A stretch of DNA of 64,000 nucleotides from Syntrophomonadaceae bacterium (GTDB lineage Bacteria; Bacillota; Dethiobacteria; DTU022; UBA8154), in NCBI GenBank assembly GCA_007135125.1, contig SLJK01000032.1, forward strand, positions 16,237 to 80,236, read 5' to 3'. The position numbers and the translations under genes are program-made. Positions 4,642 through 50,331 of the stretch are shown in pieces (position 1 is the first letter of the stretch; the number at the start of each line of letters is the position of its first letter). The notes under the pieces were generated by a model. It was given only the letters and a program-made list of their open reading frames with translations, had not been told where the DNA came from and made no database searches.

Positions 4642-5999
4642 ACTTAAGAAGTTTTCTTCATACTTTAAAAGAAAATAAAGAACTTATAGAACTTGAGGAC
4701 GAAGTCAGCCCCCGTTACGAAGTTACTTCCATTTTCAAAGAGGTGCTGGGGGAGCAGGGAGGTCCGGCTGTCCTTTTGCACAATGTGAGCGGTTATCCCG
4801 GCCGGAAGTTGGCAGGGAACCTTTTGGCCAGCCGTGAAAAGATGGCTTTAGCCCTGGGGTGCCAGGTGGAAGATTTAAGGGACGCATATCTGAAAGGGCG
4901 CTTTGCTTCCCTGGAGCCTGTGCAGGTGCAAGGTAGTGCTCCGGCACAGGAAGAAACAGTGGCAGAAGAGATAGATCTTCTATCTCTTCTGCCCGCACCT
5001 ATTTTTCATCAGGGTGATGCCGGGCCTTACCTTACAGCAGGTGTGCTTTTGGCTAAAGATCCCGATACAGGGGTAATGAACAGTGGAATTCACAGGCTGC
5101 AACTAAAAGGCAAAACTAGGCTGGGGGTGTTTCTGGCTACACCGCCTCTGTCAAATTATTTCAAGAGATCTGAAGAAGAAGGTAAACCCCTGCAGGTGGC
5201 AGTAGCATTAGGTCTGCATCCAGCCGAGCTTTTAGCAGCAGCCGTTTCTCTTAAGGAGGGCATGAAAAGCAAGATTCATCTGGCCGGAGGTTTAGCCGGA
5301 CGAGGAATGCCGCTTACTCCAGCCAAAACCCTGGATATGATGGTGCCAGCCACGGCGGAAATTATCCTAGAGGGACATTTACTTCCTGGTATAAGAGAAG
5401 CAGAAGGACCTTTTGGAGAAAGTACCGGCTATTATTTTGAGGCGGAAAGCCCCATTTTGGAGATACAAGCGGTTACGTTTCGTAAGGATCCCATTCTTAC
5501 CGTTATTCCGCCCTGGGGAATCGAAACGGATATTATACTTGCAGTTTTTAGCGGAGCTGAACTGTGGAAGGAGCTGCACAGGGTTATTCCTGAAGTAAGA
5601 GATGTTACTTTTTTACCGGGCTCCCTCACTTTTCAGGGAGTTATCCAGGTGAGTGAATCACTTTCCAGGGAAAAAATAAGGCAACTGATTTACCTGGCTT
5701 TAAATTTGGATCGACGCCTGAAACACGTGATAGTGGTCGACGATGATGTGGATATTCATAGTTCTAGAGAGGTTTTATGGGCACTGGGGACTCGTTTTCA
5801 GGGCTCTACTGACCTCATTTGCCTCCCGGGCCTGGAAGGGTATGTTATTGATCCTTCCACCCAGGAAGGAGAAACAGCGAAACTTGGTTTTGATGCAACT
5901 GCACGACCGGAGGGGCCATATAGCAAGCGTTACCGGAGTCTTTCCCTTCCCCGGGAATCAATTTTAAAGGCAAAAAACATTCTGGAACAGAGGAGATGA
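4632..5999 (+). CDS. UbiD-family (de)carboxylase paralog
   Basis: 455 aa (MEVDLRSFLHTLKENKELIELEDEV…GPFGESTGYY…). Second complete UbiD paralog. Start overlaps the small ORF and the stop overlaps ubiX (ATGA). Confidence 0.8.
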   Translation: MEVDLRSFLHTLKENKELIELEDEVSPRYEVTSIFKEVLGEQGGPAVLLHNVSGYPGRKLAGNLLASREKMALALGCQVEDLRDAYLKGRFASLEPVQVQGSAPAQEETVAEEIDLLSLLPAPIFHQGDAGPYLTAGVLLAKDPDTGVMNSGIHRLQLKGKTRLGVFLATPPLSNYFKRSEEEGKPLQVAVALGLHPAELLAAAVSLKEGMKSKIHLAGGLAGRGMPLTPAKTLDMMVPATAEIILEGHLLPGIREAEGPFGESTGYYFEAESPILEIQAVTFRKDPILTVIPPWGIETDIILAVFSGAELWKELHRVIPEVRDVTFLPGSLTFQGVIQVSESLSREKIRQLIYLALNLDRRLKHVIVVDDDVDIHSSREVLWALGTRFQGSTDLICLPGLEGYVIDPSTQEGETAKLGFDATARPEGPYSKRYRSLSLPRESILKAKNILEQRR

Positions 6000-7280: not shown

Positions 7281-8384
7281 ATGGAAAAAATTTCGAAACG
7301 CCCCTGTTTAGATCAAATTACTCCTTATGTGCCCGGAAAACCTATTGAGGAGGTGGAAAGGGAGCTGGGGATAAAAGGAGTTATTAAATTAGCTTCCAAT
7401 GAAAATCCTCTTGGCCCTTCTTCTTTGGCTCAGGAGGCTATAAAGGAGTTTGCGCCTGAGGTAGGCATGTATCCTGATGGAAATTGCTTTTATTTAAAAG
7501 GAGAATTAGCCGATTATCTTGGGGTAACAGAAAAGAACATTGTTATGGGAAATGGAGCTGATGATCTTATCACCCTGGCCGGTCTTGCTTACTTGAACCC
7601 AGGGGATGAGATTATAATGGCGCAGCCCACTTTCTCACAATACGGATTTTCTGCCAGGCTTATGGATGCTATCCCGGTCAAAGTTCCGTCCCAGGATTTC
7701 CGTCATGACTTGAATGCTATAGCTGCAGCTATTACTGACAAGACGAAGATAATTTTTATCTGTAATCCCAACAATCCTACGGGCACCATTGTTACCAGGG
7801 AAGAGATGGAGACTTTCATTAAAAAGATCCCCACGAGTGTCCTGGTGGTTATTGACGAAGCATACTATGAATATGCCAGTGACCCTAAATATCCGCAGAG
7901 CATTGAGTTATTAAAAGAGGGTTATAATGTCTTTATCCTACGTACTTTTTCTAAGATATTCGGACTGGCTGGCTTGCGAGTAGGCTATGGATTGGCCCCG
8001 GAAAATGTTGTTACTGATATCAATACGGTTCGTGAACCTTTTAACGTAAATGCCATTGCCCAGTATGCTGCCAGGGCGGCGCTGAAAGACAAAAAACATG
8101 TCGAGGAAGGGCGCAGGATTAACGAGGAGGGCAAGATATACCTGGCAGAAGAATTTGAGCGCCTAAACCTTTTCCATCTTCCCACAGAAGCAAATTTTGT
8201 TTTTGTAGATGTAGGTGTGGATTCCCGCAAGCTTTTCCCGGTAATGTTGAAAAAAGGTGTTATTGTAAGAACAGGAGATATTTTTGGATATCCTGAGTTT
8301 ATCAGGTTAACTATTGGCACCCAGGAGCAAAATCGCCGTTTTATCAAAGCTTTTGAGGAGAGCATTAAAGAACTGCAAGGTTAG
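7281..8384 (+). CDS. hisC: histidinol-phosphate aminotransferase
   Basis: 367 aa. …LASNENPLGPS…, …FSKIFGLAGLRVGY… is PLP class-II aminotransferase and HisC-like throughout. RBS GGGAG. Confidence 0.85.
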   Translation: MEKISKRPCLDQITPYVPGKPIEEVERELGIKGVIKLASNENPLGPSSLAQEAIKEFAPEVGMYPDGNCFYLKGELADYLGVTEKNIVMGNGADDLITLAGLAYLNPGDEIIMAQPTFSQYGFSARLMDAIPVKVPSQDFRHDLNAIAAAITDKTKIIFICNPNNPTGTIVTREEMETFIKKIPTSVLVVIDEAYYEYASDPKYPQSIELLKEGYNVFILRTFSKIFGLAGLRVGYGLAPENVVTDINTVREPFNVNAIAQYAARAALKDKKHVEEGRRINEEGKIYLAEEFERLNLFHLPTEANFVFVDVGVDSRKLFPVMLKKGVIVRTGDIFGYPEFIRLTIGTQEQNRRFIKAFEESIKELQG

Positions 8385-19850: not shown

Positions 19851-20783
19851 ATGAAAATGAATATTGCTCGCAACGTTTCACAGTTGGTAGGTGGTACACC
19901 TCTGGTATATTTGAATCGTGTAACAGAAGAGGGTGCAGCAGCGGTAGCGGCCAAGCTAGAATCTTTTAATCCCGGCGGGAGCGTAAAGGACCGTATCGGT
20001 TTAAGCATGATTGAAGCTGCGGAGCGGGACGGCTTGATTAAGAAAGATACGATAATCCTGGAACCAACCAGCGGCAATACAGGCATTGCCCTGGCCATGC
20101 TTGCGGCGGCTAAAGGTTACCACTGTGTGTTAGTTATGCCCGATACCATGAGCCAGGAGCGCAGAAGCCTTCTTAAAGCCCTGGGAGCGGAACTGGTTTT
20201 AACACCTGGAGCGGAGGGTATGAAAGGGGCTATTAAAAAAACTGAAGAGATGGCGGCTGCTGATGACAGGCACTTTATTCCGCAGCAGTTTTCCAATCCT
20301 GCTAACCCGGAGGTACACCGCCAAACCACAGCAGAAGAGATCTGGAAAGATACTGATGGAACTGTTGATATTTTTGTTGCTGGAGTAGGTACAGGGGGCA
20401 CAGTAACTGGTGTGGGAGAGGTACTTAAGAAACGCAAGCCTGATTTGAAGGTCGTTGCCGTGGAGCCGGCAGAATCTCCGGTCTTGGGGGGAGGCAAACC
20501 CGGACCTCATCGTATTCAGGGCATCGGAGCGGGTTTTATTCCGGAAGTGCTTGACATTTCCGTGATCGACGAGGTGATACAGGTGCCTGATAAACTTGCT
20601 CTCGAAACTTCCCGGAGACTTCACGGGGAAGAAGGGCTGCTGGTTGGTATTTCATCAGGTGCCGCTTGTCAAGCAGCCTTGCAGGTTGTTGCCCGTCCTG
20701 AGAACAAGGGTAAGCTGGTAGTTGTAGTTTTTCCGGACCTGGCCGAAAGGTATATCTCTACGGCTCTTTTTAGTGTGGATTAA
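19851..20783 (+). CDS. cysK: cysteine synthase A (O-acetylserine sulfhydrylase)
   Basis: …[15 protein letters not shown]…, …[12 protein letters not shown]…, GTGGT is the PLP fold-II CysK signature. Confidence 0.9.
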
Positions 20784-20829
20784 AAATAGTGAACCAACAT
20801 TTTATAATCGGTTTTATGAAGGATAGAAG

Positions 20830-21879
20830 GTGATGATTGTGGTACCTCTGGAGGAGGGCAGCTGGGAACGCTATTCGCGGCAGATACTTTTTAGCCCTAT
20901 TGGTAGGGAAGGGCAAAAAAGTTTTCTTAAGAGCAGGGTGGCTATTATAGGTTTAGGAGCACTGGGCACTGTTTCTGCAGGCAGCCTTGCCAGGGCGGGA
21001 ATTGGATTCTTAAAGCTGGTCGATAGAGATTTTGTAGAAGAATCCAATTTGCAGAGACAGATGCTTTTTGATGAAGAAGATGCCAGGAATGCTTTGCCCA
21101 AAGCGCTAGCGGCTCAGCAAAAGATAAGTAAAATAAATTCTGAAATAAGCTGCCAGGCCCTGATAGAAGATGTTAATTATGGAAATGTGGAAGGAATAAT
21201 TAAAGATGTTGATCTTGTTCTGGATGCCACAGATAACTTCGAAATCAGGTATTTGATAAATGAAGCGTGTGTGAAGCATAATATTCCCTGGATTTATGGA
21301 GCTTGCCTGGCCAGTTCGGGTTATACTTTTACTATATTACCGGAAGAGACAGCCTGTCTGGCCTGTTTTATTGGCAAAGTACCTCCTCCACCCGGCTCAG
21401 GTTTAACTTGCGATACAGCAGGTATTATTAGCCCTGCTGTTAATATTGTAGCTTCCTTGCAGGTTGCCGAGGCCATGAAATTGCTCAGTGGGAATAAGGA
21501 GGCCCTGCAAAAGAACGCCCAATTTTTCGACCTGTGGGAGAATCATTTTATGGAATTGGAAATACAAAGGAACGAAGAATGTGCTGTATGTGCGAAAAGG
21601 GAGTTTCACCTGCTCTCCGGCAAGAACCAACAGGGCACTACTTACCTTTGTGGACGTGATGCTGTGCAGCTACTCCCTTCAGCGCCTCAAAAGCTTTCTT
21701 TGAAAACCATGGAAAAGAAATTGGCACCTTTAGGCGACGTATTTGCCACCGATTTTTTATTGAAATTTAACGATGGAAAGCATGAGATGGTTATTTTTCC
21801 TGACGGGCGTGCTATGATTAAAGGCACCTCAGATCTTAAATTGGCGCGCACCCTTTATGCACGTTATTTGGGCAACTGA
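20830..21879 (+). CDS. ThiF/MoeB/HesA-family E1-like adenylyltransferase with extra ~100-aa C-terminal domain
   Basis: YSRQILF…VAIIGLGALGT…LVDRDFVEESNLQRQ and the CxxC…CxxC pair (ACLAC, CAVC). C-terminal domain of unknown type (…DFLLKFNDGKHEMVIFPDGRAMIKG…). Confidence 0.7.
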   Translation: MMIVVPLEEGSWERYSRQILFSPIGREGQKSFLKSRVAIIGLGALGTVSAGSLARAGIGFLKLVDRDFVEESNLQRQMLFDEEDARNALPKALAAQQKISKINSEISCQALIEDVNYGNVEGIIKDVDLVLDATDNFEIRYLINEACVKHNIPWIYGACLASSGYTFTILPEETACLACFIGKVPPPPGSGLTCDTAGIISPAVNIVASLQVAEAMKLLSGNKEALQKNAQFFDLWENHFMELEIQRNEECAVCAKREFHLLSGKNQQGTTYLCGRDAVQLLPSAPQKLSLKTMEKKLAPLGDVFATDFLLKFNDGKHEMVIFPDGRAMIKGTSDLKLARTLYARYLGN

Positions 21880-21925
21880 TATCTAGTGTAAATTATTTCG
21901 GTTGCCTGTTTTGGAGGGAAGAGTA

Positions 21926-23071
21926 GTGCTTTATCTTGACAATGCAGCGACTTCTTATCCCAAACCTGAAGAAGTTTACCGAGCAATGGATTATTTTTTG
22001 CGTAATCAGGCAGCTAATCCCGGGCGTGCAGCTTTCAGGATGGCGGTAGAGGCTGAAAGGCTTATAACCGATACCAGGTTACTGCTAAAGGATTTTTTTA
22101 ACCTTCCCAGGCCCGAACAGGTAGTATTCACCCTGAATTGTACTGAAGCATTAAATATAGTTCTTAAAGGGCTTCTTAACCCTGGGGCCCATGTTATAAC
22201 CAGCGGTTTAGAGCATAATTCGGTTAGCAGGCCTCTTAACAGGCTCAAAGTAGATGGAGTAGACTTTTCCATTGTTAATGCTGCTCCTGACGGATTAATT
22301 AACCCGGAAGAAATTGCCAAATTAATTCGTCACGACACACAGCTTATTGTGCTTACACATGCTTCCAATGTACTGGGAACTATTGAACCTGTGAAAGAGA
22401 TTGGAGAAATTGCTGCCGAAAAGGGAGTATTGTTTCTCCTCGATGCGGCTCAAACTGCAGGAGCGATTCCTCTAGATATGCAGGATTTGAAGATAAGTAT
22501 TCTGGCTTGTTCCGGACATAAAGGGTTAATGGGGCCTCCGGGAACCGGTGTTCTGGCTATTAGGGATGATGATCTAGAGATTGCTTCATTAAAGGAGGGT
22601 GGGACGGGTAGTTTTTCCGAAGAACCCTTTCAACCTTCATATTACCCTGACCGTTTGGAAGCGGGAACTCCTAATACAGTGGGAATAGCGGGTCTAAAGG
22701 CCGGTGTAGAGTTTATAAAAAAGGAAGGGTTAGAAAGCATAAGAGAACACGAAGTAAATTTATTGAAGCTGCTCCTGGAAGAGCTTTCCAATATTCCTAA
22801 TGTTACTCTTTACGGCACAACAGAGGCAGATAAACGGACAGGGTTAGTATCTTTTAATATTGAAGGTTGGGACCCACAGGATGCAGCGGCGGTGCTGGAG
22901 ACACGGTTTGAGGTAGCCTGCAGAGCGGGATTGCATTGTGCCCCGTGGGCTCATCGTTTCAACGAGACTTATCCTGACGGGGCTATACGTTTTGGTATAA
23001 GTTATTTTAATACTGAAAGCGAAATTAGAACAGCACTGGATGCTGTGGGCACGTTAGCAAAGGCTTTTTAA
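21926..23071 (+). CDS. cysteine desulfurase (class V aminotransferase, NifS/IscS-like)
   Basis: VLYLDNAATSYPKP…, …SGHKGLMGPPGTG… (Lys-PLP), …GLHCAPWAH… GTG 21926 with GGAGGG RBS preferred over the track start 21902. Confidence 0.8.
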   Translation: MLYLDNAATSYPKPEEVYRAMDYFLRNQAANPGRAAFRMAVEAERLITDTRLLLKDFFNLPRPEQVVFTLNCTEALNIVLKGLLNPGAHVITSGLEHNSVSRPLNRLKVDGVDFSIVNAAPDGLINPEEIAKLIRHDTQLIVLTHASNVLGTIEPVKEIGEIAAEKGVLFLLDAAQTAGAIPLDMQDLKISILACSGHKGLMGPPGTGVLAIRDDDLEIASLKEGGTGSFSEEPFQPSYYPDRLEAGTPNTVGIAGLKAGVEFIKKEGLESIREHEVNLLKLLLEELSNIPNVTLYGTTEADKRTGLVSFNIEGWDPQDAAAVLETRFEVACRAGLHCAPWAHRFNETYPDGAIRFGISYFNTESEIRTALDAVGTLAKAF

Positions 23072-23100
23072 CAATACTATTAGAAAGGGGAAAATTAATT

Positions 23101-23550
23101 ATGCAGCTTTCTACAAAGGCACGTTATGCGACAAGGGCCATGATTGAGCTGGCCCTGGAGTTTGGAACAAATCCTCTTCAATTAAAGGAAATTGCCAGGA
23201 GGCAGGATATTTCTGAAAAGTACCTGGAACAAGTGCTTTTACCTTTGCGGACCAGAGGATTTATTTACACTCTTAAGGGAAGCAAAGGGGGTTATTGTTT
23301 GGCGGTTACTCCCCAGGACGTCACTCTCTATGATATTATTCAGACGGTAGAAGGTTCTATTGCGCCAGTTCACTGTGTTGAAAACAAAGAAATATGTGCA
23401 AGGATTGACAAATGTGCCATGCGAAACTACTGGAGCAGGTTAAAGGATAAAATCACTGAAGAGCTTCAGAAAACAACTCTTGCCGATTTGGCACAAGAGC
23501 AAAAAGAAAAAGAAGGGGAAGTAGGAGAAAAACTAGATTACCAGATTTAA
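23101..23550 (+). CDS. Rrf2-family transcriptional regulator with 3-Cys motif (IscR-like)
   Basis: MQLSTKARYATRAMIELAL… (Rrf2 wHTH) and C-x6-C-x5-C (HCVENKEICARIDKC), consistent with an Fe-S-ligating Rrf2. Confidence 0.8.
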   Translation: MQLSTKARYATRAMIELALEFGTNPLQLKEIARRQDISEKYLEQVLLPLRTRGFIYTLKGSKGGYCLAVTPQDVTLYDIIQTVEGSIAPVHCVENKEICARIDKCAMRNYWSRLKDKITEELQKTTLADLAQEQKEKEGEVGEKLDYQI

Positions 23551-23562
23551 ATTGTGGTAATG

Positions 23563-23608
23563 AAAAGGCTTTTACCTGCCAAATTGTTTTTAGCAGTAAA
23601 AGCCTTTT
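23563..23608. terminator. bidirectional terminator between convergent Rrf2 and dctP genes
   Basis: Perfect 13-bp stem AAAAGGCTTTTAC / GTAAAAGCCTTTT with a 20-nt loop. U-tracts are available on both strands. Confidence 0.45.
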
Positions 23609-23679
23609 TAAGTCAGCTGTTTATTATTTGGAAATTACTGGACTAACTAAGCAGTTTCAAAGCGCGTTTATTAACAGCT

Positions 23680-24765
23680 TTATCCTTCATAATCGCCGTA
23701 TTCTTCTGAGAATCTTGCGTCCAGTTCACGTACGGTGTTAATAATTTCTTCGCCGTGCAGCCCCCTTGCTTCGGCGTCTCCGATCCAGTTTTCAACAATG
23801 GGTTCGATGCGTCCTCTCCATCGTTCTTCTTCGCCGGGGTCGAGTTCAAAAACTTCAATTCCATGTTCTTCGATACCAAACTCCAGTCCTCGTTCAGTAT
23901 GCTCTGTTCTCAGCTTACCATATTCGTACGCATATTCTTTGCTCATTTCCTCGATGGTTTCTTGAATATCCGTGGGAAGTGCATTCCAGGTCTCCAGATT
24001 CATCACTTTCATGAAAACGATGTTGTAGAGAAAGGGAGTTTTGGTGACATAGTCCAGGACTTCAGCCAACCTGAATCCTTTAAGAGTGTCAGTGGGAGCA
24101 AGAATGCCATCCAGTAGTGCAGAATCAAGTGCCAGATATGATTCGGACATGGGCATTGATACCGGTGTTACGCCAAGTGCCTGCATGGGTGCAACCGTTC
24201 CTCCTACAACCCTCATTTCTTTTTCTTCAATAGCTTCCAGGGTGTTGCCGGGCTCCTCCCTGGTCATAATGTCACCGGGACCTGTAGCCCAGAAAAAAAG
24301 CACCTTAACATCGTCATATTCGTCTATAAGCTCTTTCTCCTTCAATGTCTTATAACCCTCGTTCACAGTGAGGGAGGCCACCAGGGCGTTATCATTTTGA
24401 TAGCCGGGCAGCTCAAAGGCTTCGGTTACCGGGAATATTCCCGGTGTATAGGCCGGGCATGTTGTCCCGATATCTGCCGAGCCATCTACAACACCTTCAT
24501 AGATTTCAGTAGCTCCCAGGAGAGCTTCACCGGGCTGTATGGTTATTTTTACTTTTCCGTCGGTTCGCTCTTCCAGGTCCCTTGCCCATACCTCGTGTCC
24601 TTCAGTTACCTGGAAATCTGTCCCTGGCCAAAAAGTGGCAAATTGCAACTCAATTACTTCATCCGGATCGGTTGCCGGTGGCTCATCAGCAGCACAACCA
24701 GTGAAAACAGGCAAAGTTGACATTATTGCTGTGACTAGTATAAAACCAAGAAGCTTGCTTTTCAT
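23680..24765 (-). CDS. TRAP transporter substrate-binding protein (DctP family), lipoprotein
   Basis: Signal peptide plus lipobox (…VFTGC). The DctP-like fold is highly similar (~60% by eye) to the paralog at 26801-27940. Confidence 0.75.
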   Translation of the reverse strand: MKSKLLGFILVTAIMSTLPVFTGCAADEPPATDPDEVIELQFATFWPGTDFQVTEGHEVWARDLEERTDGKVKITIQPGEALLGATEIYEGVVDGSADIGTTCPAYTPGIFPVTEAFELPGYQNDNALVASLTVNEGYKTLKEKELIDEYDDVKVLFFWATGPGDIMTREEPGNTLEAIEEKEMRVVGGTVAPMQALGVTPVSMPMSESYLALDSALLDGILAPTDTLKGFRLAEVLDYVTKTPFLYNIVFMKVMNLETWNALPTDIQETIEEMSKEYAYEYGKLRTEHTERGLEFGIEEHGIEVFELDPGEEERWRGRIEPIVENWIGDAEARGLHGEEIINTVRELDARFSEEYGDYEG

Positions 24766-24831
24766 CCACTATACCCTCCTTGCAAGATCTTCAGCTAGGA
24801 TTGCTGAAAATACAATGTTTTTATGATTATT

Positions 24832-26139
24832 TTATATCCTTGCCATTTCAGGTAGAAAGAGTGCAATTTGCGGAAAAGCAAACAATAGTGCAATACACAC
24901 TACAATGGCAATAAGGAACGGCCAGGTACCTTTAAAAATCTCCATGACATCTATATCTCTGGCTACCCCCGCCACTACATATACATTAGCTCCTACCGGG
25001 GGTGTAATAACTCCCATGCCAAGTGCTAAAACGACAATAACCCCAAACCAAATAGGGTCATACCCCAGGGTAACAGCAACAGGGTAAAAGATAGGTGTGG
25101 TCATTAGAATAAGGGCCAGGGCATCGATGAAAAGCCCTAAAATAAGGTAAACCACTAAAACAAGAATCAGAACAAAAGTGGGAGAAAAGGGAGCTTCTAC
25201 AGCCATAGTAGCAACAAAGGCAGGGAGCCCGGTAATACCCAGGAAGCGTCCGTAAATAAAGGCAGCTCCCGTGAGAAAAAGGACCATGGCCGATAAGCGT
25301 ACCGCGTCAGCCGTTGAGCTGATAAAACCTTGCCAGGATAGTGTCCTTCGGACCAGCGATACTATAAGAGTTGCAAAAGCGCCTATACCTCCGGCTTCGG
25401 TAGGAGTAAAATATCCTAAAAATAGCCCACCCATTACGGCGATAAAAATTACAACAACTTCCATTCCTCCTGAAAAAAGTGCCTTAAGTTTATCAATTGA
25501 GGAAATTTTAGGTCCGGCAGGGGCGGCGGAAGGATCACGCAAAGCTATAAAATAAACCGTTAGCATGAATAAGAACATTAACAGGAGACCGGGGAAGATA
25601 CCGGCCAGAAAAAGCTGGGAGATGGAGGTCCCCGTTGAAACACCGTAAAGGATAAAAATGACGCTGGGAGGGATCATTACTCCAAGAATGGCTGCTGCGG
25701 CAATGGTGGCGGTAGAGAGAGTGCGTCTGTACTCAAACTTGGTCATTTCCGGGAGGGCCACGGCGGTCATGGTAGCAGCGGTAGCCGTGGTAGAGCCGCA
25801 GATAGCACCAAAAGCTGTACAGGCTGCTATGGTGGCCATGGACAAACCGGCCGGAAAGCCACCGATTACTTTATAAGTGGCATCATATATCCTACTGCTG
25901 AGCCCGGAGTAAAAAGCTATAAAACCCATCCACATAAAGAGAGGAACTACAATAAGCGAATAAGAAGCAAAATTGGAGTACATGGTCTGGGCCGAGATAG
26001 ACAGGGCAGCTGTAATATTAGTAAGGTAGGCATAGCCAGCCATTCCAATTACCAGCATTACAAAGGCGATTGGCAGGCGGAGAAAAAGCAGCACGAATAG
26101 AATTATTATGGAAATAAATGCTACATACAATGGATCCAT
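24832..26139 (-). CDS. TRAP transporter large permease DctM
   Basis: 435 aa, about 12 TM, with a typical DctM composition. Confidence 0.85.
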   Translation of the reverse strand: MDPLYVAFISIIILFVLLFLRLPIAFVMLVIGMAGYAYLTNITAALSISAQTMYSNFASYSLIVVPLFMWMGFIAFYSGLSSRIYDATYKVIGGFPAGLSMATIAACTAFGAICGSTTATAATMTAVALPEMTKFEYRRTLSTATIAAAAILGVMIPPSVIFILYGVSTGTSISQLFLAGIFPGLLLMFLFMLTVYFIALRDPSAAPAGPKISSIDKLKALFSGGMEVVVIFIAVMGGLFLGYFTPTEAGGIGAFATLIVSLVRRTLSWQGFISSTADAVRLSAMVLFLTGAAFIYGRFLGITGLPAFVATMAVEAPFSPTFVLILVLVVYLILGLFIDALALILMTTPIFYPVAVTLGYDPIWFGVIVVLALGMGVITPPVGANVYVVAGVARDIDVMEIFKGTWPFLIAIVVCIALLFAFPQIALFLPEMARI

Positions 26140-26633
26140 TATTGCTCACTCCCCTTTACAGCTAAATTAATTGCTTTAAGAAAATCTCTAAGCAGAACGA
26201 TGGCGAGAATAATAAAACCGATACCGACCAGAAAAATAATGGGGTAAATAGGAATCTGCAGATGACCGGTGTAATAACCTCTTTCCATCATCCTCAAGGC
26301 ATAAATAATTGTCCGCCAGGCTAATAAAGAGGAGAAAAAAACGGCTAAGAGCATGGTAAAGGTATCTATAATGCCCTGTACACGTAAAGGAAACTTCCTC
26401 ACCAGTACGCTCACGAAGATATGCCCTTTCATATGCTGGCAGTAAGCTACAGCCATACCGATGAGGACAGCTCCCAAAATTTCTGTCATTTCCACGGTGC
26501 CAGGAATGGGCCTCCAAAATGCGCGTATGATTACGTTGCCTGAAATGAGAAGCATTACCGCTACCAGTGCAATTTGGCTTATATGAGATATTTGCCAGGA
26601 AACAGTGCCCACAAATTTGTCCAAAAACCTCAT
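26139..26633 (-). CDS. TRAP transporter small permease DctQ
   Basis: 164 aa, 4 TM, immediately upstream of and overlapping dctM. Confidence 0.7.
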   Translation of the reverse strand: MRFLDKFVGTVSWQISHISQIALVAVMLLISGNVIIRAFWRPIPGTVEMTEILGAVLIGMAVAYCQHMKGHIFVSVLVRKFPLRVQGIIDTFTMLLAVFFSSLLAWRTIIYALRMMERGYYTGHLQIPIYPIIFLVGIGFIILAIVLLRDFLKAINLAVKGSEQ

Positions 26634-26800
26634 TTATTTCTGCCTCCTTGTAACATATGTATGGACAGCAAGAGTGTTTATAGAGAAGGCACCGCTGTCT
26701 CATGTCTTAAACTAAGACAGCAGATGCCTTCTCTTCAAGCTCTGGTTAAACAAGGAGCAGCAATTATTAATATATCAATTGCACTCTTGTTAGTTTAAAA

Positions 26801-27940
26801 TCAGTTAAAATAGTCGCCATACTCAGCAGAGTATTTTTCCTGGAGGTCCTTAACTGTTTGCAGGATTTCCTCGCCGGGCAGGCCTTGATCATTAAGACCC
26901 TCCACGTAGCCGTCCTGGACTGGCTCGATCGCTTCCATCCATCTTTCTACTTCATTAGCGTCGAGTTCGATTATTTCATGACCGAATTCATCCACGGCAA
27001 ATTCCTGACCAAACAATGTATGCTCGGTTCTTAGCACTCCATATTCATAGACGTACTTTTCGTTCACTTCGTCAAAAATCTGTTGTACTTCGGCGGGGAA
27101 AGAGTTCCATGTGTCCTGGTTCATGACTTTTATAAACGTAATGTTGTAGAGGAAAGGTGTCTTGGTGATGTAGTTGGTTACCTCGGCCAGCATAAATCCT
27201 TGAAGGGTATCGGTAGGGGCAAGGATTGCCTCCACGATTCCCTGGTCCAGGGCCAGGTATGATTCGGACATGGGCATGGTAGTGGGGGTTCCTCCCAGCG
27301 CCTCTATCACGGGGACCGAACCGCCGGCTGCCCTTGTTTCCATGCCCTGGTAATCGTCCAGCGTGTGGACAGGAGACTGCGAAATGATATCCCCGGGTCC
27401 CGTGCTCCAGAAATGCATGACCTTTACATCTTCATATTCCTGCGTAACCAGGTCATAAGTTTCAAAAGCATCCTGAATAACCATGGAGGAAACCAGGGCG
27501 TTGTCGTTAGGGAAGCCAGGGAGCTCAAAGGTTTCTGTGACAGGGAATACCCCCGGAGTGTAAGAAGGGCAGGTAGAGCCCAGATCGGCAGCTCCGTCGG
27601 CTACACCTTCATATATTTCCGTTGCTCCCAGCAAAGCGCCCGCGGGGTGCCAGTTGAAGTCGATGGTGTGGTTGGTTTCCGATTCTACACGATCTTTTAT
27701 CTCCTGTGCCCAGACTTGGTGTCCATCTGCAACCTGAAAGTCTTCACCAGGCCAGAAAGTAGCAAATTCCATGGTAAAATGTTCTCCTTCTGCATCAGGA
27801 TCTGCAGGCTCGGCAGGTTCATCCGGCTCATCTACGTCAGGATCCGGAGCGGGTGCAGGTTCATCAGGAGCACAACCCACAAATGCAAACATGGATACCA
27901 TCGCTATGGCTAATAACAGAATAAACAACTTTCTTTTCAT
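26801..27940 (-). CDS. TRAP transporter substrate-binding protein (DctP family) paralog, lipoprotein with P/D/E-rich linker
   Basis: Lipobox …FVGC, then APDEPAPAPDPDVDEPDEPAEPADPDAEGE linker, then a DctP fold. Confidence 0.75.
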   Translation of the reverse strand: MKRKLFILLLAIAMVSMFAFVGCAPDEPAPAPDPDVDEPDEPAEPADPDAEGEHFTMEFATFWPGEDFQVADGHQVWAQEIKDRVESETNHTIDFNWHPAGALLGATEIYEGVADGAADLGSTCPSYTPGVFPVTETFELPGFPNDNALVSSMVIQDAFETYDLVTQEYEDVKVMHFWSTGPGDIISQSPVHTLDDYQGMETRAAGGSVPVIEALGGTPTTMPMSESYLALDQGIVEAILAPTDTLQGFMLAEVTNYITKTPFLYNITFIKVMNQDTWNSFPAEVQQIFDEVNEKYVYEYGVLRTEHTLFGQEFAVDEFGHEIIELDANEVERWMEAIEPVQDGYVEGLNDQGLPGEEILQTVKDLQEKYSAEYGDYFN

Positions 27941-28284
27941 TCAATTGACCCTCCTTCAAAGTTTTAAAAAAATAAACAACCCCTCTTGTAATACCCGACG
28001 CCGACTTTTTATCACCACCTTTCTTATGAATACGTTACTAAAATAGTTACAGTGAAAATCACTACAGTCAACTATCCCTTGGAACATTCTGAAAATAATC
28101 TATGTTAACTCTATCACAAATAATTTATGGAATCAAGCCATTTTTCATGTACTAAAAATGGACAAATGAAAAATTCCAGGAAATTAAGTGGGATACGAAA
28201 AAATATTTCGCCTACTGTAGTTATTTATAACAAATATTGCAAATATATAACTATCCCTAATACTTGCCAGCTGTGGCTTGATCT

Positions 28285-28428
28285 TTAAAGTAAGTATCGA
28301 GAAACCAGGAAAAGGATTATTCCAATTAGAAGAAGGGTAAGCCCCAGCCTGACGATGAGCATGACTCCTTTAATAAACAATATTAGAATAATCAAGGCTG
28401 CCAGTATTAGTAACGGTACGTAAAGCAT
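28285..28428 (-). CDS. hypothetical 47-aa two-helix hydrophobic peptide (not in ORF track)
   Basis: MLYVPLLILAALIILILFIKGVMLIVRLGLTLLLIGIILFLVSRYLL*. RBS GGGGAGGAA overlaps the SDR stop. Confidence 0.25.
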   Translation of the reverse strand: MLYVPLLILAALIILILFIKGVMLIVRLGLTLLLIGIILFLVSRYLL

Positions 28429-28442
28429 CACCGGTTCCTCCC

Positions 28443-29210
28443 CTATACCGTCATTGAGCCTCCATCTACCATAATAGTTTCTCCTGTAATATAACTGGAT
28501 GCCTCCGAGGATAAAAATAATACCGGATGAACGATTTCAGACGGTTCGGCAATTCTGCCCAGGGGAATATTGTTGATTATATTATCGTAGTTTTCTTGGT
28601 TGGACCAGAAAGGTTTGCTGAAATGGGTTTTTACCATGGCCGGCGCCACAGCATTAACCTGGATATTATACGGAGCTAGTTCTGAGGCCAGCACTTTGGT
28701 AAGCATTTCTAAACCGGCTTTTGCTATACCGTAAATTCCCATTCCGGCAGAAGCTTTTCGTGATGCTATGGAAGAGATATTAATAATTTTGCCGCTTTGT
28801 TGTTCTTTCATGATCTCGGCAGCTTTTTTTGAACAGAGAAACGTTCCTCCCAGGTTTGTCTCTACGATTTTTTGCCACAGGGAATAGTCAGTTTCTAATG
28901 TAGATGGAGTAACCAGATTCATACCCACATTATTGACAAGGACGTCAAGACGTCCAAACTTTTCCAGGGTAGCCCTGAAAAGTTTGGCTACATCTTCTTC
29001 CCTGGCAATATGTGCGGTCATCGCCAGTACATTATCTTTATTGTCAAGGCCTTCCAGGACAGCCTCTATTCCTTCTTTCTTTCTGCCGCAGAAAGCCACC
29101 TTTGCTTTTTGTTCTAACAGCGTCTTTACCATCTCCAGGCCAATACCCCTGGTTCCCCCGGTTACTAAAAACACTTTATTTTCCAGGCCATACCAACAAT
29201 TAGAAGGCAT
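28443..29210 (-). CDS. short-chain dehydrogenase/reductase (FabG-like)
   Basis: TGGTRGIG Rossmann motif, NNVG, S…YxxxK (IYGIAKAG) catalytic motif. Confidence 0.8.
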   Translation of the reverse strand: MPSNCWYGLENKVFLVTGGTRGIGLEMVKTLLEQKAKVAFCGRKKEGIEAVLEGLDNKDNVLAMTAHIAREEDVAKLFRATLEKFGRLDVLVNNVGMNLVTPSTLETDYSLWQKIVETNLGGTFLCSKKAAEIMKEQQSGKIINISSIASRKASAGMGIYGIAKAGLEMLTKVLASELAPYNIQVNAVAPAMVKTHFSKPFWSNQENYDNIINNIPLGRIAEPSEIVHPVLFLSSEASSYITGETIMVDGGSMTV

Positions 29211-29403
29211 CCAAAACTCCTTTCGTTAACCGCATCTTCTCAAAACATTTTGTCTTTTTTATAAAGATTCTCTTAAGTAATAAAAATTCCTTCCCTTGCG
29301 AAAATATTTATAAGGGAAAATATGTCAAGGTTAACAAATATTTTTAGACACAAAAATTGAAACGATCCTTGTCGGGTTAGTTACATCCTTGGGCGAGTTA
29401 GGG

Positions 29404-29432
29404 TTGATTTTTTTACAAAAAAATAATATAAT
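29404..29432 (+). promoter_or_regulatory. sigma-A promoter for tRNA-Arg(CCT)
   Basis: TTGATT, a 17-nt spacer, then TATAAT, about 30 nt upstream of the tRNA 5' end. Confidence 0.4.
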
Positions 29433-29467
29433 ACCTGCAGCGTTGATAGGCTTCTTTACACAGGTGA

Positions 29468-29543
29468 GCACCTGTAGCTCAGGGGATAGAGCACCGGATT
29501 CCTAATCCGGGTGTCGGAGGTTCGATCCCTCCCAGGTGCACCA
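29468..29543 (+). tRNA. tRNA-Arg (anticodon CCT), CCA encoded
   Basis: 76-nt cloverleaf folded by hand: acceptor GCACCTG/CAGGTGC, anticodon stem CCGGA/TCCGG, loop TTCCTAA, T-loop TTCGATC. Confidence 0.8.
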
Positions 29544-29681: not shown

Positions 29682-30878
29682 TTAACCGGTTACCTTAACA
29701 ATGAGGCTGGCACCTGTGTCGCCGGCGGCACATCCGGTAAAGAGCCCGTAACCACCGCCCACTATGACTAATTCTTCGATCATTTCAGCAATACATCGAC
29801 CGGCAGTAGGTCCCTGCGGGTGCCCGAATATCATAGAGCTGCCATAGTTATTGAAGCTCATGGGGTCTAATCCCATTTTTTTGGACATATATACATCATT
29901 AGCAGCAAAAGGGTTGTGTGTTTTTATAACTTTTATATCTTTCAGGGCAAGCCCAGCATTTTTCAGTGCATTTTCCGCTGCCGGCACAGGGGCAGCAGCC
30001 ATAAACCCTTTATCTACCCTGGTGAATCCATAGGAGACAACCTGTATCTCTACGTTTTTGTCCGCACTTAATTCCTGTGCTTTTTCTTTGGTGGTAACGA
30101 TAAAACCACAGTTGCCATCGGCAGGATGGGTTTGGACTCCAGAACTGTGCACGCCGTCTGGTAGGAACGCTTTAAGGGAAGCAAGCCCTTCTTTAGTTCT
30201 TGGTGTGACTCCTTCGTCGGCTTCCAGGGTGCCCCTTTTCTTCCTGCTGATCTTATATTCCACGGGAAACATATAACGTTTCTGGAATTCGCGGTCGTTA
30301 GCGAGAGATTCCTGGTACTGCTCGTAACGACGAAGGGCAACTTCATCACAGAGTTCCTTGGTAATTCCTTCAATTGAGCAAGCAGTATTCTCCGCTGTTT
30401 TGATCATGGGGAGTCCTACCCAGGGGTCGGCATTGAAGTTATCCATCATCCAGTTTTCAGAGATTACTTCGCCACCCGGGCCCAACGGGTTAGGCCAAAC
30501 CGTATGAGGTCCGTTGGAGCAACGGTCTGTCATAAGACAGAAAGCCAGGTTAAGGTTTCCTGTTTCCACGTTCATGGCTGCATAATTGAGACATGTGGTA
30601 GATGTGGAGCAAGCTTGAGAAATATGCAAAGCAGGAACCTGTTCTGCCCCCAGCATGCCGCCGGCCCAGGTGGATGCATAAAATGTGTGCAGCTGCCCTA
30701 TTGTTTTTCCAAAAACAACGTAATCGATCATTGCCGGATCAAAACTCTTTGAGTCAAGCCACCGCTTGGCAGTGACTGCCCCCAGCTCGATAGCATTGTC
30801 ATTTTGCAGGCTGCCCTGCCAGCGTGCGAATGGTGAGCTGAAGTAGCCACGGAATGGAATAAACGCTTTTTCATACAT
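29682..30878 (-). CDS. thiolase-family acyl-CoA acetyl/acyltransferase
   Basis: …QACSTSTTCLNYAA… (active-site Cys), C-terminal …GCAAGDTGASLIV… The track ORF extends to 30995. ATG 30878 with RBS AAGGAGG is the likely start (MYEKAF…). Confidence 0.8.
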   Translation of the reverse strand: MYEKAFIPFRGYFSSPFARWQGSLQNDNAIELGAVTAKRWLDSKSFDPAMIDYVVFGKTIGQLHTFYASTWAGGMLGAEQVPALHISQACSTSTTCLNYAAMNVETGNLNLAFCLMTDRCSNGPHTVWPNPLGPGGEVISENWMMDNFNADPWVGLPMIKTAENTACSIEGITKELCDEVALRRYEQYQESLANDREFQKRYMFPVEYKISRKKRGTLEADEGVTPRTKEGLASLKAFLPDGVHSSGVQTHPADGNCGFIVTTKEKAQELSADKNVEIQVVSYGFTRVDKGFMAAAPVPAAENALKNAGLALKDIKVIKTHNPFAANDVYMSKKMGLDPMSFNNYGSSMIFGHPQGPTAGRCIAEMIEELVIVGGGYGLFTGCAAGDTGASLIVKVTG

Positions 30879-30931
30879 TGAATGAAACCTCCTTGATAAT
30901 AATTCAACTACTCCCGAATTTAGTCGGTGGT

Positions 30932-30945
30932 AGTTTGATTTGCTG
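30932..30945. promoter_or_regulatory. perfect 14-bp palindrome GCTGCTTAAGCAGC (candidate operator) upstream of thiolase
   Basis: Self-complementary 14-mer 54-67 nt upstream of the thiolase start codon. Confidence 0.25.
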
Positions 30946-31282
30946 CTTAAGCAGCCCCAAATTATGCAACCGCAAAAATATCTAACCTCATACAAACAAA
31001 AAATGATACAGCTTATCCGCGCATGTTGTCCCCGCTATGGATTGTACACCTCCTTTTTGTGCATGATTGGAAAAAGTGATGCCGGTATCCGATAAACAGC
31101 TATTCAATGAATATTTCAACTTCCTCTTTGTATATTCGCCATAAATAATGCTTTCCCTGCCAGCTGCACTTCAAAAAGGTTTATCAATAATTAACGGTCT
31201 GCTACAAAAAAAATCAAAGATAAGAGGAATGGGGTCGACAGGTGCAGAAAAATAGATAAAGCAAAGAAAGGGGGATTGGTTA

Positions 31283-38850: not shown

Positions 38851-40431
38851 TCATAAGGAGCGGAGCTTGAAGCGCTGTATTTTGCCGGTGGTGCTTTTCG
38901 GCAATTCGGCAGCTATTTCGATCCAACGTGGATACTTGTACTTGGCCAGCCTTTCCAGAACCCAGTTTTTTAGCTCCTCCTCCAGATTTTCCACCCTCTC
39001 ATGACTTTCGCGGAGTACTACAAAGGCTTTCGGCTTTATCAGGTTGTTTTCGTCAGCTTGCCCTATTACAGCAGACTCAAAGACAGCTGGGTGACTGTTA
39101 AGGCAATTTTCAATTTCCACCGGAGATACCCAAATCCCGCCGACTTTTAACATATCGTCAGACCTTCCTGCACACCAGTAGTATCCATCTTCATCCACGT
39201 AAAATTTGTCTCCCGTATTTATCCATTCCCCCTGCATGGTTATGCGTGTTTTTTCGCGTTTACGCCAGTATTGCTGAGCTGCGCTGTCACCTTTAACCAG
39301 CAGTGTCCCTATTTCACCCTGGGGCACTTCGTCTCCCTGGTCATCTACCAACTTCAATTCATATCCCGGAACCGGTTTGCCGGTGGAACCTGGTTTTATT
39401 TCGCCGGGACGGTTGGAGAGGAAGATATGAAGCATTTCACTCGACCCCATGCCGTCTAAAATATCTATCCCAAAACGTTTTTTCCAGCGGTGGTAGAGAT
39501 CCTCCGGCAGCGCTTCCCCTGCTGATACACATATTCTTACAGAAGATAATTCGTGGTTTCCGTTAGGGTCAGGGGTTGTTCCTGTTTCCTGATCTTGATG
39601 TTCTTTATACTTCAACATCTGCCCATAAAGGGTGGGAACACCGAAAAACACCGTGGGGCGGTAATATTCCAGGTTTTTGAAAACATTTTCCGGTGAAGGG
39701 GGACGAGAGTCCAGGACGGCGGAAGCTCCTACAGAGAGAGGGAAGTACATACCATTTCCCAAACCGTAGGCAAAAAACAGCCTGGCCGGGGAATAGCAGA
39801 TATCTTCTTCAGTCAATTCCAGCACCTCTTTTGCATAATTATTAGAGGTAACGACCATGTCATACTGGGAATGAATGGCTCCTTTTGGAGGTCCTGTAGA
39901 ACCTGAGCTGTAAAGCCAGAAACCTACATCATCTTTAGTTGTGCGTGCGGTTTTGAGCATGGTAGGGGCCTGCCTGTACTTTTGCTTGAAAGGAATATGA
40001 GCCCCATTAATCTCCGAGATGACTATTAGATCACGCAAATAATATAATTCTCCCTTAATGTTTTGTACAACGGGCTGCATTTCATCAGAAATTACGAGTG
40101 CTCGCACACGGCTGTCGTTAAGATAATATTCGTAATCTTCAGGGGTGAGCATGGTGTTAACCGGTATGGGCACCGCCCCAATTTTAATAGCCCCCCAAAA
40201 TACTGCGTAAAATTGTGGAACATCCAGCATGATAATAAGTATTTTGTCGTCGATTCTCAGGCCGAGTTCCCTAAATCCATTGGCAGTCTTATTTGCCATT
40301 TTGTGGATATCATTATAAGAATAATTGCGGTGTGCCGTATAAACGGCGACTTTATGTCCCCGACCCTGCCTGATGTTACGATCCAAAAAATAGTCAGCGG
40401 CATTAAAAAATTCCTGTTCTACCCCATGCAC
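38851..40431 (-). CDS. aromatic acid-CoA ligase of the benzoate/4-hydroxybenzoate-CoA ligase (BadA/HbaA/BclA) family
   Basis: Block-by-block match recalled from BadA: FWLYSSGSTGPPKG, RLFFAYGLGNGMYFP, SSEMLHIFLSN, DMLKVGGIWVSP, LAKYKYPRWIEIAAELPKSTTGKIQRFKLR. Confidence 0.85.
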   Translation of the reverse strand: MHGVEQEFFNAADYFLDRNIRQGRGHKVAVYTAHRNYSYNDIHKMANKTANGFRELGLRIDDKILIIMLDVPQFYAVFWGAIKIGAVPIPVNTMLTPEDYEYYLNDSRVRALVISDEMQPVVQNIKGELYYLRDLIVISEINGAHIPFKQKYRQAPTMLKTARTTKDDVGFWLYSSGSTGPPKGAIHSQYDMVVTSNNYAKEVLELTEEDICYSPARLFFAYGLGNGMYFPLSVGASAVLDSRPPSPENVFKNLEYYRPTVFFGVPTLYGQMLKYKEHQDQETGTTPDPNGNHELSSVRICVSAGEALPEDLYHRWKKRFGIDILDGMGSSEMLHIFLSNRPGEIKPGSTGKPVPGYELKLVDDQGDEVPQGEIGTLLVKGDSAAQQYWRKREKTRITMQGEWINTGDKFYVDEDGYYWCAGRSDDMLKVGGIWVSPVEIENCLNSHPAVFESAVIGQADENNLIKPKAFVVLRESHERVENLEEELKNWVLERLAKYKYPRWIEIAAELPKSTTGKIQRFKLRSL

Positions 40432-40530: not shown

Positions 40531-40605
40531 TGGTACGCCCGCAGGGATTCGAACCCCGACTTCAGGCTCCGGAGGCCTGCGTGATATCCCTTTCACCACG
40601 GGCGC
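40531..40605 (-). tRNA. tRNA-Arg (anticodon CCG), CCA encoded
   Basis: 75-nt cloverleaf on the minus strand: acceptor GCGCCCG, anticodon loop CTCCGGA, T-loop TTCGAAT. Confidence 0.8.
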
Positions 40606-50303: not shown

Positions 50304-50331
50304 TCCAAGGCAGGTGGAAGGAGGGAAACAA

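Follow-up and report, generated by a model that had tools for sequence, protein, structure and literature searches.

A TRAP operon from a soda-lake Firmicute with two binding proteins of separate descent and a conserved stem-loop between dctP and dctQ

The TarPQM transporter of R. palustris takes up lignin-derived aromatic acids (PMC3610893), and the structures of TarP_Sse and TarP_Csal (7nr2, 7nra, 7nqg, 7nsw, 7ntd) hold coumarate, cinnamate, ferulate, caffeate or 4-hydroxyphenylacetate. We analyzed a related TRAP (tripartite ATP-independent periplasmic) operon on the minus strand of a 64,000-nucleotide stretch of contig SLJK01000032.1 from a Syntrophomonadaceae bacterium, hereafter the window, in which two solute-binding proteins, DctPa and DctPb, are encoded with a single pair of membrane subunits, DctQ and DctM. 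Like TarPQM, this system is of the DctP type, and its binding proteins resemble TarP in sequence (E = 4e-36 and 4e-34) and fold (TM ~0.88-0.90). They share about 22-27% identity with the TarP proteins, which are free periplasmic proteins of Proteobacteria with one P per operon, whereas the window encodes two P proteins with predicted lipid anchors in a Firmicute host. The best PDB matches are the Desulfovibrio proteins Dde_0634 (4nap, 4pgn, 4pgp) and Desal_3247 (4n6d), at 28-30% identity and TM 0.88-0.93; those proteins are soluble and periplasmic, whereas the window proteins fall in a clade of their own with hundreds of soda-lake and subsurface sequences. The locus would work like importers of the TarPQM and Dde_0634 type, as a distinct sub-family at 25-30% identity.

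Two binding proteins per translocator are familiar from ABC (ATP-binding cassette) systems, where HisJ and ArgT/LAO with HisQMP, or LivJ and LivK, are paralogs of overlapping but distinct specificity that serve one permease. The logic may be the same here by analogy, although an ATP-driven ABC transporter differs from an ion-driven TRAP elevator and the sharing of DctQM in the window is putative. A literature search for TRAP operons with two P genes or a P-Q stem-loop found B. pertussis DctP6/DctP7 (BP1887/BP1891) alone, two DctP-type genes close together at one TRAP locus (PMC5812351; PMC12344293). These bind the same ligand, pyroglutamate, and their membrane components are apparently mutated, in contrast to the window, where dctQ and dctM are intact and the ratio of non-synonymous to synonymous divergence (dN/dS) of dctM is 0.05. 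Regarding expression, the 3' protective structure of malE-malF stabilizes the binding-protein mRNA in E. coli and raises its ratio to the permease, and wherever decay regulation of an E. coli ABC operon has been studied, the cistron stabilized is that of the binding protein, whatever its place in the operon (PMC5927463). The window likewise has a stable stem-loop right 3' of a binding-protein cistron and ahead of the membrane-subunit cistrons. Unlike the malE-malF element, a REP (repetitive extragenic palindromic) sequence, this stem-loop is not a genome-wide repeat as judged from the 64-kb window and ~690 kb of related loci. A conserved sequence of its own and a constant spacing to dctQ set it apart further, and its host is a Firmicute with a different set of RNases.

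The four open reading frames lie exactly where an earlier sequence-only reading of the window had placed a dctP-dctQ-dctM-dctP series on the minus strand, and the complete order is dctPa, hairpin, dctQ, dctM, dctPb and terminator (coordinates in Table 1). The three components of a DctP-type TRAP transporter (TC 2.A.56) are encoded together as PF03480, PF04290 and PF06808 proteins. NCBIfam models agree, with TIGR00786 at 320 bits for DctM (cut-off 268) and NF037995 TRAP_S1 at 83-85 bits for both binding proteins (cut-off 50), and together with the lipoboxes described below these matches bear out the assignment to a DctP-type system with two lipoprotein receptors. The stop codon of dctQ overlaps the start of dctM (ATGA), a Shine-Dalgarno sequence precedes dctPa, dctQ, dctM and dctPb alike, and dctPb follows dctM after 66 nt. 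Family-built hidden Markov models found no further TRAP genes in the window. In every feature that can be read from the sequence, the locus thus has the makings of a DctP-type TRAP system with lipoprotein binding proteins, and we take it for an ordinary uptake system of the sodium type, with presumed Na+ drive and binding-protein dependence.

The promoter would lie in the AT-rich 502 nt ahead of dctPa, and transcription would run to the terminator past dctPb, with dctPb co-transcribed. This terminator has a U-rich tail (UUUUCAUU on the TRAP strand), the intergenic region between dctPb and the convergent Rrf2 gene folds with -30.7 kcal/mol, and the hairpin is likely the 3' end of the operon. 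As the best overall explanation we propose, with somewhat better than even confidence, that dctPa, dctQ and dctM are a native unit joined by a guest, dctPb, that both receptors use the same DctQM to import aryl-carboxylates, and that the hairpin after dctPa is protective.

To place the two binding proteins, 62 related loci were collected by a scan of one genome per species, with more from protein look-ups, and a neighbor-joining tree was built from 169 mature P domains. Nearly all related loci have the canonical order P-Q-M with a single P. In the tree, DctPa and DctPb fall in two well-separated clades, the former together with proteins from L005/L070, L031, L044 and L071 and the latter with those from L046, L048, L049, L051 and L058, and elsewhere the members of each clade normally head a P-Q-M operon of their own. 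The M tree mirrors the P tree, and the window DctM joins the loci L044, L071, L031 and L005 of the Pa clade. Because of this grouping, dctPa-dctQ-dctM is a co-evolving native unit and DctPb a guest captured from a sister lineage.

The two window proteins are 52% identical by BLASTP and 56% over aligned codons, somewhat less than the roughly 60% estimated by eye in the sequence-only reading, and their synonymous divergence (dS) is saturated at 2.6. Each has closer matches, of up to 69% identity, among the P proteins of other genomes. The description of the pair as tandem-duplicated does not hold either: a recent tandem duplicate is rejected, since the copies are separated by dctQ and dctM, belong to different old clades with closer kin elsewhere and have a dS of 2.6, and Pa alone co-evolves with DctQM. 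The order P-Q-M-P was confined, among the related loci, to the window lineage, namely the window itself, its divergent allele L067 and L020, which is truncated upstream; L030 and L074 have the order Q-M-P. Most likely, this order would have arisen for dctPb from two operons, neighboring or duplicated, of which the second lost its dctQM, and dctPb now occupies the place that its own dctQM would have had.

Double-P loci have also arisen independently, as P-P-Q-M in L023/L073 and as P-P-Q in L043, and the two P proteins are anciently diverged both in L073 (6753-10766) and in L043 (1458-4367). These independent operons make the two-receptor state a recurrent theme in this TRAP sub-family.

Both binding-protein copies appear to be functional. 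All four genes are intact in L067, and the dN/dS values between the two alleles are 0.10 for Pa, 0.16 for Q, 0.05 for M and 0.11 for Pb. The intact genes and low ratios argue that both copies are maintained, and thus that neither is the pseudogene whose presence in relatives would have spoken against the earlier proposal. At the 65 columns conserved to at least 95% in the family, the consensus residue is kept by Pb at 65 and by Pa at 63. The carboxylate-binding arginine, R203 in Pa and R185 in Pb, is invariant in all 169 family sequences. We equate it, by motif position rather than structural superposition, to R147 of SiaP, which pairs with the substrate carboxylate (PMC4646407), and in each window protein it would clamp the carboxylate of the ligand.

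The candidate pocket positions, a tentative assignment by analogy of motifs to SiaP, are nearly all identical between Pa and Pb and invariant in the 169 sequences (T123, P125, Y127, W178, T180, G181, R203, M224, Y228, P242, F249, Y265, N266 and F269). Only 11 columns discriminate the two clades, all by conservative exchanges (A/V, S/T, I/V, E/D, M/L); examples are A205/V187 and S208/T190 beside the arginine, S151/A130 and M175/L156. Such similarity favors an alternative in which Pa and Pb are redundant, binding the same ligand or ligands and differing in affinity, abundance or regulation, so that the second receptor adds capacity rather than range. The two neighboring DctP homologs of Bordetella pertussis, both of which bind pyroglutamate, are a precedent for it (PMC5812351; PMC12344293). 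The two clades are nevertheless distinct across many genomes, and both copies are under purifying selection in two very divergent alleles. Furthermore, the window-type Pa carries derived residues at otherwise invariant positions (A179 to S/T and G238 to A) and an R-to-M change at position 250, which is mostly basic in the family, and its dN between the window and L067 is 2.5 times that of Pb. The derived residues and the faster non-synonymous change hint that the cognate Pa specialized after the guest Pb arrived, and we regard redundancy as possible, at roughly one chance in three. In the explanation we prefer, cognate DctPa, and probably guest DctPb too, would hand aryl-carboxylates to a single DctQM elevator, and two receptors would widen the substrate or affinity range.

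The long hairpin that the sequence-only reading had noticed between dctPa and dctQ proved real. Its predicted free energy is -38.9 kcal/mol, compared with -17.3 +/- 3.6 kcal/mol for shuffled sequences (z = -6.0), and none of 200 shuffles was as good. It consists of a basal helix, a one-base bulge and a long upper helix, and lies 57 nt past the Pa stop and 43 nt ahead of the Q start. Strong hairpins (-25 to -47 kcal/mol) are present in the P-Q spacer of 40 out of 53 distinct related loci; the other 13 have spacers under ~75 nt or, in one case, an AT-rich spacer instead. About 30 loci share one design, composed of a basal helix GAGGGC/GCCCUC, an internal loop (UU opposite AU, UU or AC), a second helix UCCACC/GGUGGA with variants of it, and a variable apex, the conserved base sequence being GAGGGCUUCC...GGAUGCCCUC.

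Analysis of the hairpin alignment revealed that 82% of cells are paired, compared with 47-54% when the partners are slid by 1-3 columns. Double-sided changes occur in 13 of the 16 pairs, the observed values were reached by none of 500 shuffles, and the RNAalifold consensus contains 11 predicted pairs, eight of them with compensatory changes. The hairpins of the window and L067 differ at many stem positions and both form a near-perfect helix. With a covariance model, the window hairpin scored 40.1 bits (E = 6e-8) in sense and 28.1 bits in antisense orientation, and sense exceeded antisense in every case, which argues for structure at the RNA level. The model also finds hairpins outside its training set, in L018, L020 and L030. 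Across ~690 kb of related loci, all its matches adjoin TRAP genes except a weak 16-bit one in L026, and within the 64-kb window it scores above 15 bits only for the hairpin itself and, weakly, for the Pb terminator. Loci pre-selected for the 20 conserved base nucleotides served as a negative control and reached at most 26 bits, versus 25-51 bits for the TRAP hairpins. The hairpin is thus a conserved RNA element.

Neither scattered copies in the window or the ~690 kb of related loci, as a REP-type repeat would require, nor a match in Rfam was found; the best Rfam score, 20 bits, was to a plant miRNA model with a gathering score of 64. A metagenome scan with the pattern GAGGGCTTCCN{14,44}GGANGCCCTC returned 80 matches, of which 79 were chance matches in GC-rich coding DNA and one (L116) was a TRAP P-Q spacer, this pattern being too degenerate. 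The similarity between the Pb terminator and the P-Q hairpin is weak (21.9 bits with the covariance model; alignment z = 3.3), and a suggestion is that the former may be a relic copy of the latter.

Regarding its mode of action, the hairpin most likely works, by analogy, as a protective stem-loop of the malE-malF type, being a stable structure just 3' of a binding-protein cistron that is conserved in orthologous operons. Once the transcript had been cut within its QM part, the stem-loop would stop 3'-exonucleases, so that the message for the binding protein would survive longer than that for the permease and binding protein would be in excess. A strong hairpin stands at the end of either binding-protein cistron, and the terminator hairpin may protect the Pb message likewise, leaving the QM message between them unprotected. 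The earlier proposal of a role in binding-protein:permease stoichiometry gains weight, within this analogy, from the strong hairpins of the 40 loci and the compensatory changes that keep their pairing.

A different mechanism is conceivable, in which the hairpin is a leaky terminator or attenuator, or a site of RNase III processing, and lowers QM transcription or separates the message of P from that of QM. In the Desulfonatronospira loci L045, L050, L053, L054 and L063, a U-tract comes after the corresponding hairpin, the 24-29 bp stems with their conserved internal loop would suit RNase III, and the distance to the Q start is fixed. For the window hairpin itself an intrinsic (Rho-independent) terminator was rejected: the stem is present, no U-tract follows it (the tail reads CUAUAAAC / CUAUAAACACUC) and the terminator scan makes no call, and a U-tract is likewise lacking in most Bacillota loci. 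We consider termination or processing doubtful, at about one chance in four, and since each of the three would lead to more P than QM, the mechanism alone is at issue.

The order in L030 is hairpin-Q-M-P-hairpin, with one copy (4955-5017) 41 nt upstream of dctQ and the other (8103-8166) directly after dctP. This second copy, with the U-tract that it has gained, resembles a true terminator and lends the termination mechanism some support. The two are homologs, identical at 45 of 64 nt (z = 8.9), and agree with a derivation of the Q-M-P and P-Q-M-P orders by gene loss from operons that had been duplicated.

Some features of the stem-loop go beyond a passive barrier, namely its conserved base, internal loop and variable apex, the ~43 nt to dctQ, the L030 copies associated with both dctP and dctQ, and its absence from Rfam. 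On these grounds, a bolder reading takes the P-Q stem-loop for an undescribed cis-regulatory RNA specific to this TRAP sub-family, maybe a processing site (e.g. for RNase III) that sets the stability of the P message and the 5' end of the QM message. Separately, the locus would be a case of binding-protein capture caught in the act, followed by faster divergence of the cognate protein, in a strain-variable segment by a tRNA-Arg gene. We hold this bolder reading to be tentative and more probably wrong than right.

The ligand class was approached through sequence and fold. The top PDB sequence matches of both Pa and Pb are 4n6d, 4nap and 4pgn/4pgp (E = 1e-44 to 1e-52), followed by TarP (7nr2) at ~1e-35, while binders of ectoine, sialic acid and C4-dicarboxylates score 1e-15 or weaker. 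In a Foldseek search with the AlphaFold2 (AF2) model of Pa (mean pLDDT 90), ranks 1-27 hold every aromatic-acid binder listed, and the E-values drop by about four orders of magnitude thereafter. These ranks include 4n6d (Desal_3247), Dde_0634 (4nap), Rfer_2570 (5im2) and Bordetella bronchiseptica 4p56, four entries titled 'TRAP solute binding protein specific for aromatic acid ligands', and TarP with coumarate, cinnamate, ferulate, caffeate or 4-hydroxyphenylacetate; the titles of 4n6d, 5im2 and 4p56, as far as listed, name no ligand. A D-amino acid is bound in 4nap, and among DctP-family proteins there is one that binds indole-3-acetate (PMC10443332). Being closer in sequence and modeled fold to proven aromatic-acid binders than to the other classes, Pa and Pb can be placed in the aromatic-acid branch of the TRAP binding proteins, with Dde_0634 and TarP. 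The F-, W- and Y-rich invariant core of the family is suggestive only.

Gene neighborhoods of relatives point in the same direction in some cases. L070 and L073, which are independent relatives, adjoin genes for an ACT protein, a PaaK-like ligase and subunits of indolepyruvate:ferredoxin oxidoreductase. This context fits the indole-type ligands of the nearest structures, which we take to be D-Trp in 4nap and indole-3-acetate and indole-3-pyruvate in 4pgn and 4pgp. In L072, thiolase and FadB-like genes lie divergently upstream, and SDR, 2-hydroxyacid dehydrogenase and 2-hydroxyacyl-CoA dehydratase genes further downstream; corrinoid and RACo genes accompany L195. Aryl-carboxylates are in our estimate the probable substrates, in line with the organic or aromatic acid uptake that had been suggested from context and that fits the closest solved structures.

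The neighboring SDR and thiolase had been part of that suggestion, and they raise the alternative that these enzymes would metabolize an imported aliphatic oxo- or hydroxy-acid of short chain, for instance acetoacetate or 3-hydroxybutyrate. Both genes sit upstream of the operon, the SDR scores with 3-hydroxybutyrate and 3-oxoacyl reductase models, and thiolase homologs (67-71% identity) adjoin P-Q-M in at least eight related loci, one of them with a FadB-like gene. The SDR is, however, absent from L067, the nearest allele, and a tRNA-Arg gene parts the thiolase from the operon. Moreover, a thiolase and a dehydrogenase would equally fit beta-oxidative shortening of phenylpropanoid side chains, the nearest relatives in sequence and fold take in every listed aromatic-acid binder, and F, W and Y are unusually frequent in the invariant core. 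An aliphatic substrate is thus improbable in our judgment. The 'aromatic CoA ligase' invoked as further context was rejected, being a generic AMP-binding enzyme 11 kb away.

Several observations weigh against the overall explanation that we prefer. First, identity to the aromatic-acid structures is low, at 25-30%, and gene contexts in the family are heterogeneous, the remaining neighborhoods being uninformative. Secondly, the hairpin is dispensable, given the 13 loci without it. It may also have an added role for QM expression or the QM message that the malE model does not predict, which is suggested by two facts: its distance to dctQ is tighter (median 43 nt from the hairpin 3' end to the dctQ start, 36-47 nt in 24 of 31 loci) than that to the dctP stop (13-70 nt across loci), and in L030 a hairpin persists upstream of dctQ. 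Thirdly, docking of Pb on a DctQM that co-evolved with Pa is putative and finds no support in the sequences: a search for convergence of Pb on Pa, by adaptation to the DctQM of Pa or by gene conversion, gave no signal, with seven Pa-like derived columns in Pb and seven in a control clade.

The same facts lend themselves to a reading of Pb as an orphan that rides on the operon transcript and serves another DctQM elsewhere in the genome, or signals to a sensor or chemoreceptor. DctQM co-evolves with Pa and not with Pb, the QM that normally accompanies a Pb-clade protein belongs to a different M clade, no adaptive convergence towards Pa is seen, and orphan binding proteins and non-transport roles have been discussed for the related TTT family (PMC5812351). 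Yet dctPb lies 66 nt past dctM with its own Shine-Dalgarno sequence and with no terminator or convincing promoter between the two genes, the P-Q-M-P order is retained in the divergent L067, and there is neither another QM nor a sensor gene nearby. An orphan Pb seems unlikely to us, somewhat more so than an aliphatic substrate, and we keep to the shared DctQM as the favored reading.

Regarding the N-termini, both proteins match the lipobox pattern [LVI][ASTVI][GAS]C (Pa ...FAFVG-C23, Pb ...PVFTG-C24) and are predicted to be acylated; position -3 is F in both lipoboxes, which is non-canonical and tolerated. G22 and C23 of Pa are invariant across the family alignment, and a relaxed lipobox pattern is matched by 111 of 131 family proteins. 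Lipid-anchored receptors are expected here, because binding proteins of a monoderm cell require a membrane tether (PMC5812351). The sequence-only reading had singled out a PDEP-rich spacer of about 30 residues in DctPa. The spacer is present, with 31 residues, and is no special feature: it lies at the upper end of the normal range, since family linkers, rich in E, P, A and D, have a median of 19 aa and reach at least 25 aa in 28 of 111 proteins. A lipid anchor followed by an acidic Pro-rich linker is, by prediction, the family norm.

The host is a spore-forming anaerobic member of the Bacillota (Firmicutes) from soda-lake sediment. The window sequence is identical to contigs of the metagenome-assembled genomes (MAGs) GCA_007122375.1 and GCA_007126665.1 and of ENA metagenome assemblies, all from soda-lake MAGs and metagenomes, and it includes genes for sporulation and germination. 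The relatives that carry names comprise Dethiobacter, Desulfuribacillus, 'Syntrophomonadaceae' and Bacillota MAGs, and the isolate codes of many of them refer to soda-lake sediment.

Comparison with L067 revealed a steep gradient of synonymous divergence, with dS values of 0.05 in the Rrf2 flank, 0.50 in dctPb, 1.25 in dctM, 1.14 in dctQ and 1.37 in dctPa. Because of this gradient and the missing SDR, the stretch from the tRNA-Arg(CCU) gene to dctPb is regarded as strain-variable inside an otherwise nearly identical genome, the tRNA gene marking one edge. When window positions 22677-29433 are aligned with L067 1-6025, divergence climbs steeply and dctPb is a mosaic of blocks of 81-95% identity, which points to allele replacement or recombination between strains at the TRAP locus. 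The Pa allele of L067 (P0002) recurs as an identical protein in L068 (1-2964), where the gene is followed not by dctQ but by BcrAD_BadFG fragments, which are 2-hydroxyacyl-CoA dehydratase activator-like; the arrangement reflects either another genomic context or a chimeric assembly.

For specialists, the capture history and the conservation of the hairpin with covariation are mildly new, the rest being of known kinds, and the locus does not overturn current understanding. It adds a Firmicute, lipid-anchored, two-receptor case to a TRAP class studied almost solely in Proteobacteria with a single soluble receptor. It also offers a natural experiment on whether one DctQM elevator can accept two binding proteins that are 52% identical, which bears on the specificity of P-QM docking. 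With a label of probable aryl-carboxylate importer, hundreds of so far unnamed proteins known from metagenomes of soda lakes and the subsurface could be annotated more readily and linked to anaerobic turnover of aromatic amino acids and phenylpropanoids. The conserved hairpin provides a concrete, testable element for binding-protein:permease stoichiometry in TRAP operons.

Table 1. Features of the TRAP locus and its surroundings, in window coordinates
Feature	Position	Strand	Remarks
Terminator hairpin common to dctPb and the convergent Rrf2 gene	23563-23608	.	Inverted repeat; perfect 13 bp stem, extends to 20 bp
dctPb, second ("guest") solute-binding lipoprotein (predicted)	24765..23680	minus	361 aa; PF03480, E = 5e-40
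Pb Arg185	24213-24211	minus	Motif EKEMRVVGG
Pb linker	24693-24655	minus	13 aa; short counterpart of the Pa linker
Pb lipobox FTGC, Cys24	24696-24694	minus	Lipobox pattern
dctM, large membrane (elevator) subunit	26139..24832	minus	435 aa; PF06808, E = 1e-89
dctQ, small membrane subunit	26633..26139	minus	164 aa; PF04290, E = 3e-22
Intercistronic RNA stem-loop dctPa/dctQ	26743..26677	minus	Core 26682-26734
dctPa, cognate TRAP solute-binding lipoprotein (predicted)	27940..26801	minus	379 aa; PF03480, E = 1e-37
Pa Arg203	27334-27332	minus	Motif GMETRAAGG
Pa disordered acidic Pro-rich linker APDEPAPAPDPDVDEPDEPAEPADPDAEGEH	27871-27779	minus	aa 24-54, 31 aa; AF2 pLDDT 48-59
Pa signal peptide and lipobox FVGC	27940-27872	minus	aa 1-23; lipobox Cys = C23
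AT-rich 502-nt upstream region	27941..28442	minus	Presumed operon promoter and operator
Inverted repeat	28218-28253		Within the 502-nt region upstream of dctPa
Weak promoter-like site	28270-28242	minus	Within the 502-nt upstream region
47-aa very hydrophobic open reading frame MLYVPLLILAALIILILFIKGVMLIVRLGLTLLLIGIILFLVSRYLL	28430..28287	minus	Between SDR and dctPa; gene call in public contigs too
SDR-family oxidoreductase	28443..29210	minus	PF13561, PF00106; absent here in L067
tRNA-Arg(CCU) gene	29468-29543	plus	Between thiolase and SDR
Thiolase, divergent	29682..30995	minus	PF00108, PF02803
AMP-binding enzyme, generic	38851-40431		~11 kb from the TRAP operon; past BCCT, hydrolase, citrate synthase and SLT genes

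On the other side of the operon, window positions 19851-23550 (plus strand) encode a cysK-like PALP enzyme, a ThiF-family protein, a NifS-like aminotransferase and an Rrf2 (CymR/IscR-like) regulator. Since the Rrf2 gene is part of this sulfur/Fe-S cluster, which converges on dctPb, it is probably not a regulator of the TRAP operon. A second tRNA-Arg gene, with a CCG anticodon, lies at 40531-40605 on the minus strand. Further along, at 52137-54812 (plus strand), an FdhA-like molybdopterin oxidoreductase is encoded in one frame with a TGA at 53172-53174, in the motif CARL-U-HAPTV; this TGA is a probable selenocysteine codon rather than a sign of a split gene. The gene comes after a NuoF-like gene (50272-52116) and Fe-S domains, and the enzyme is likely an NAD-linked formate dehydrogenase.

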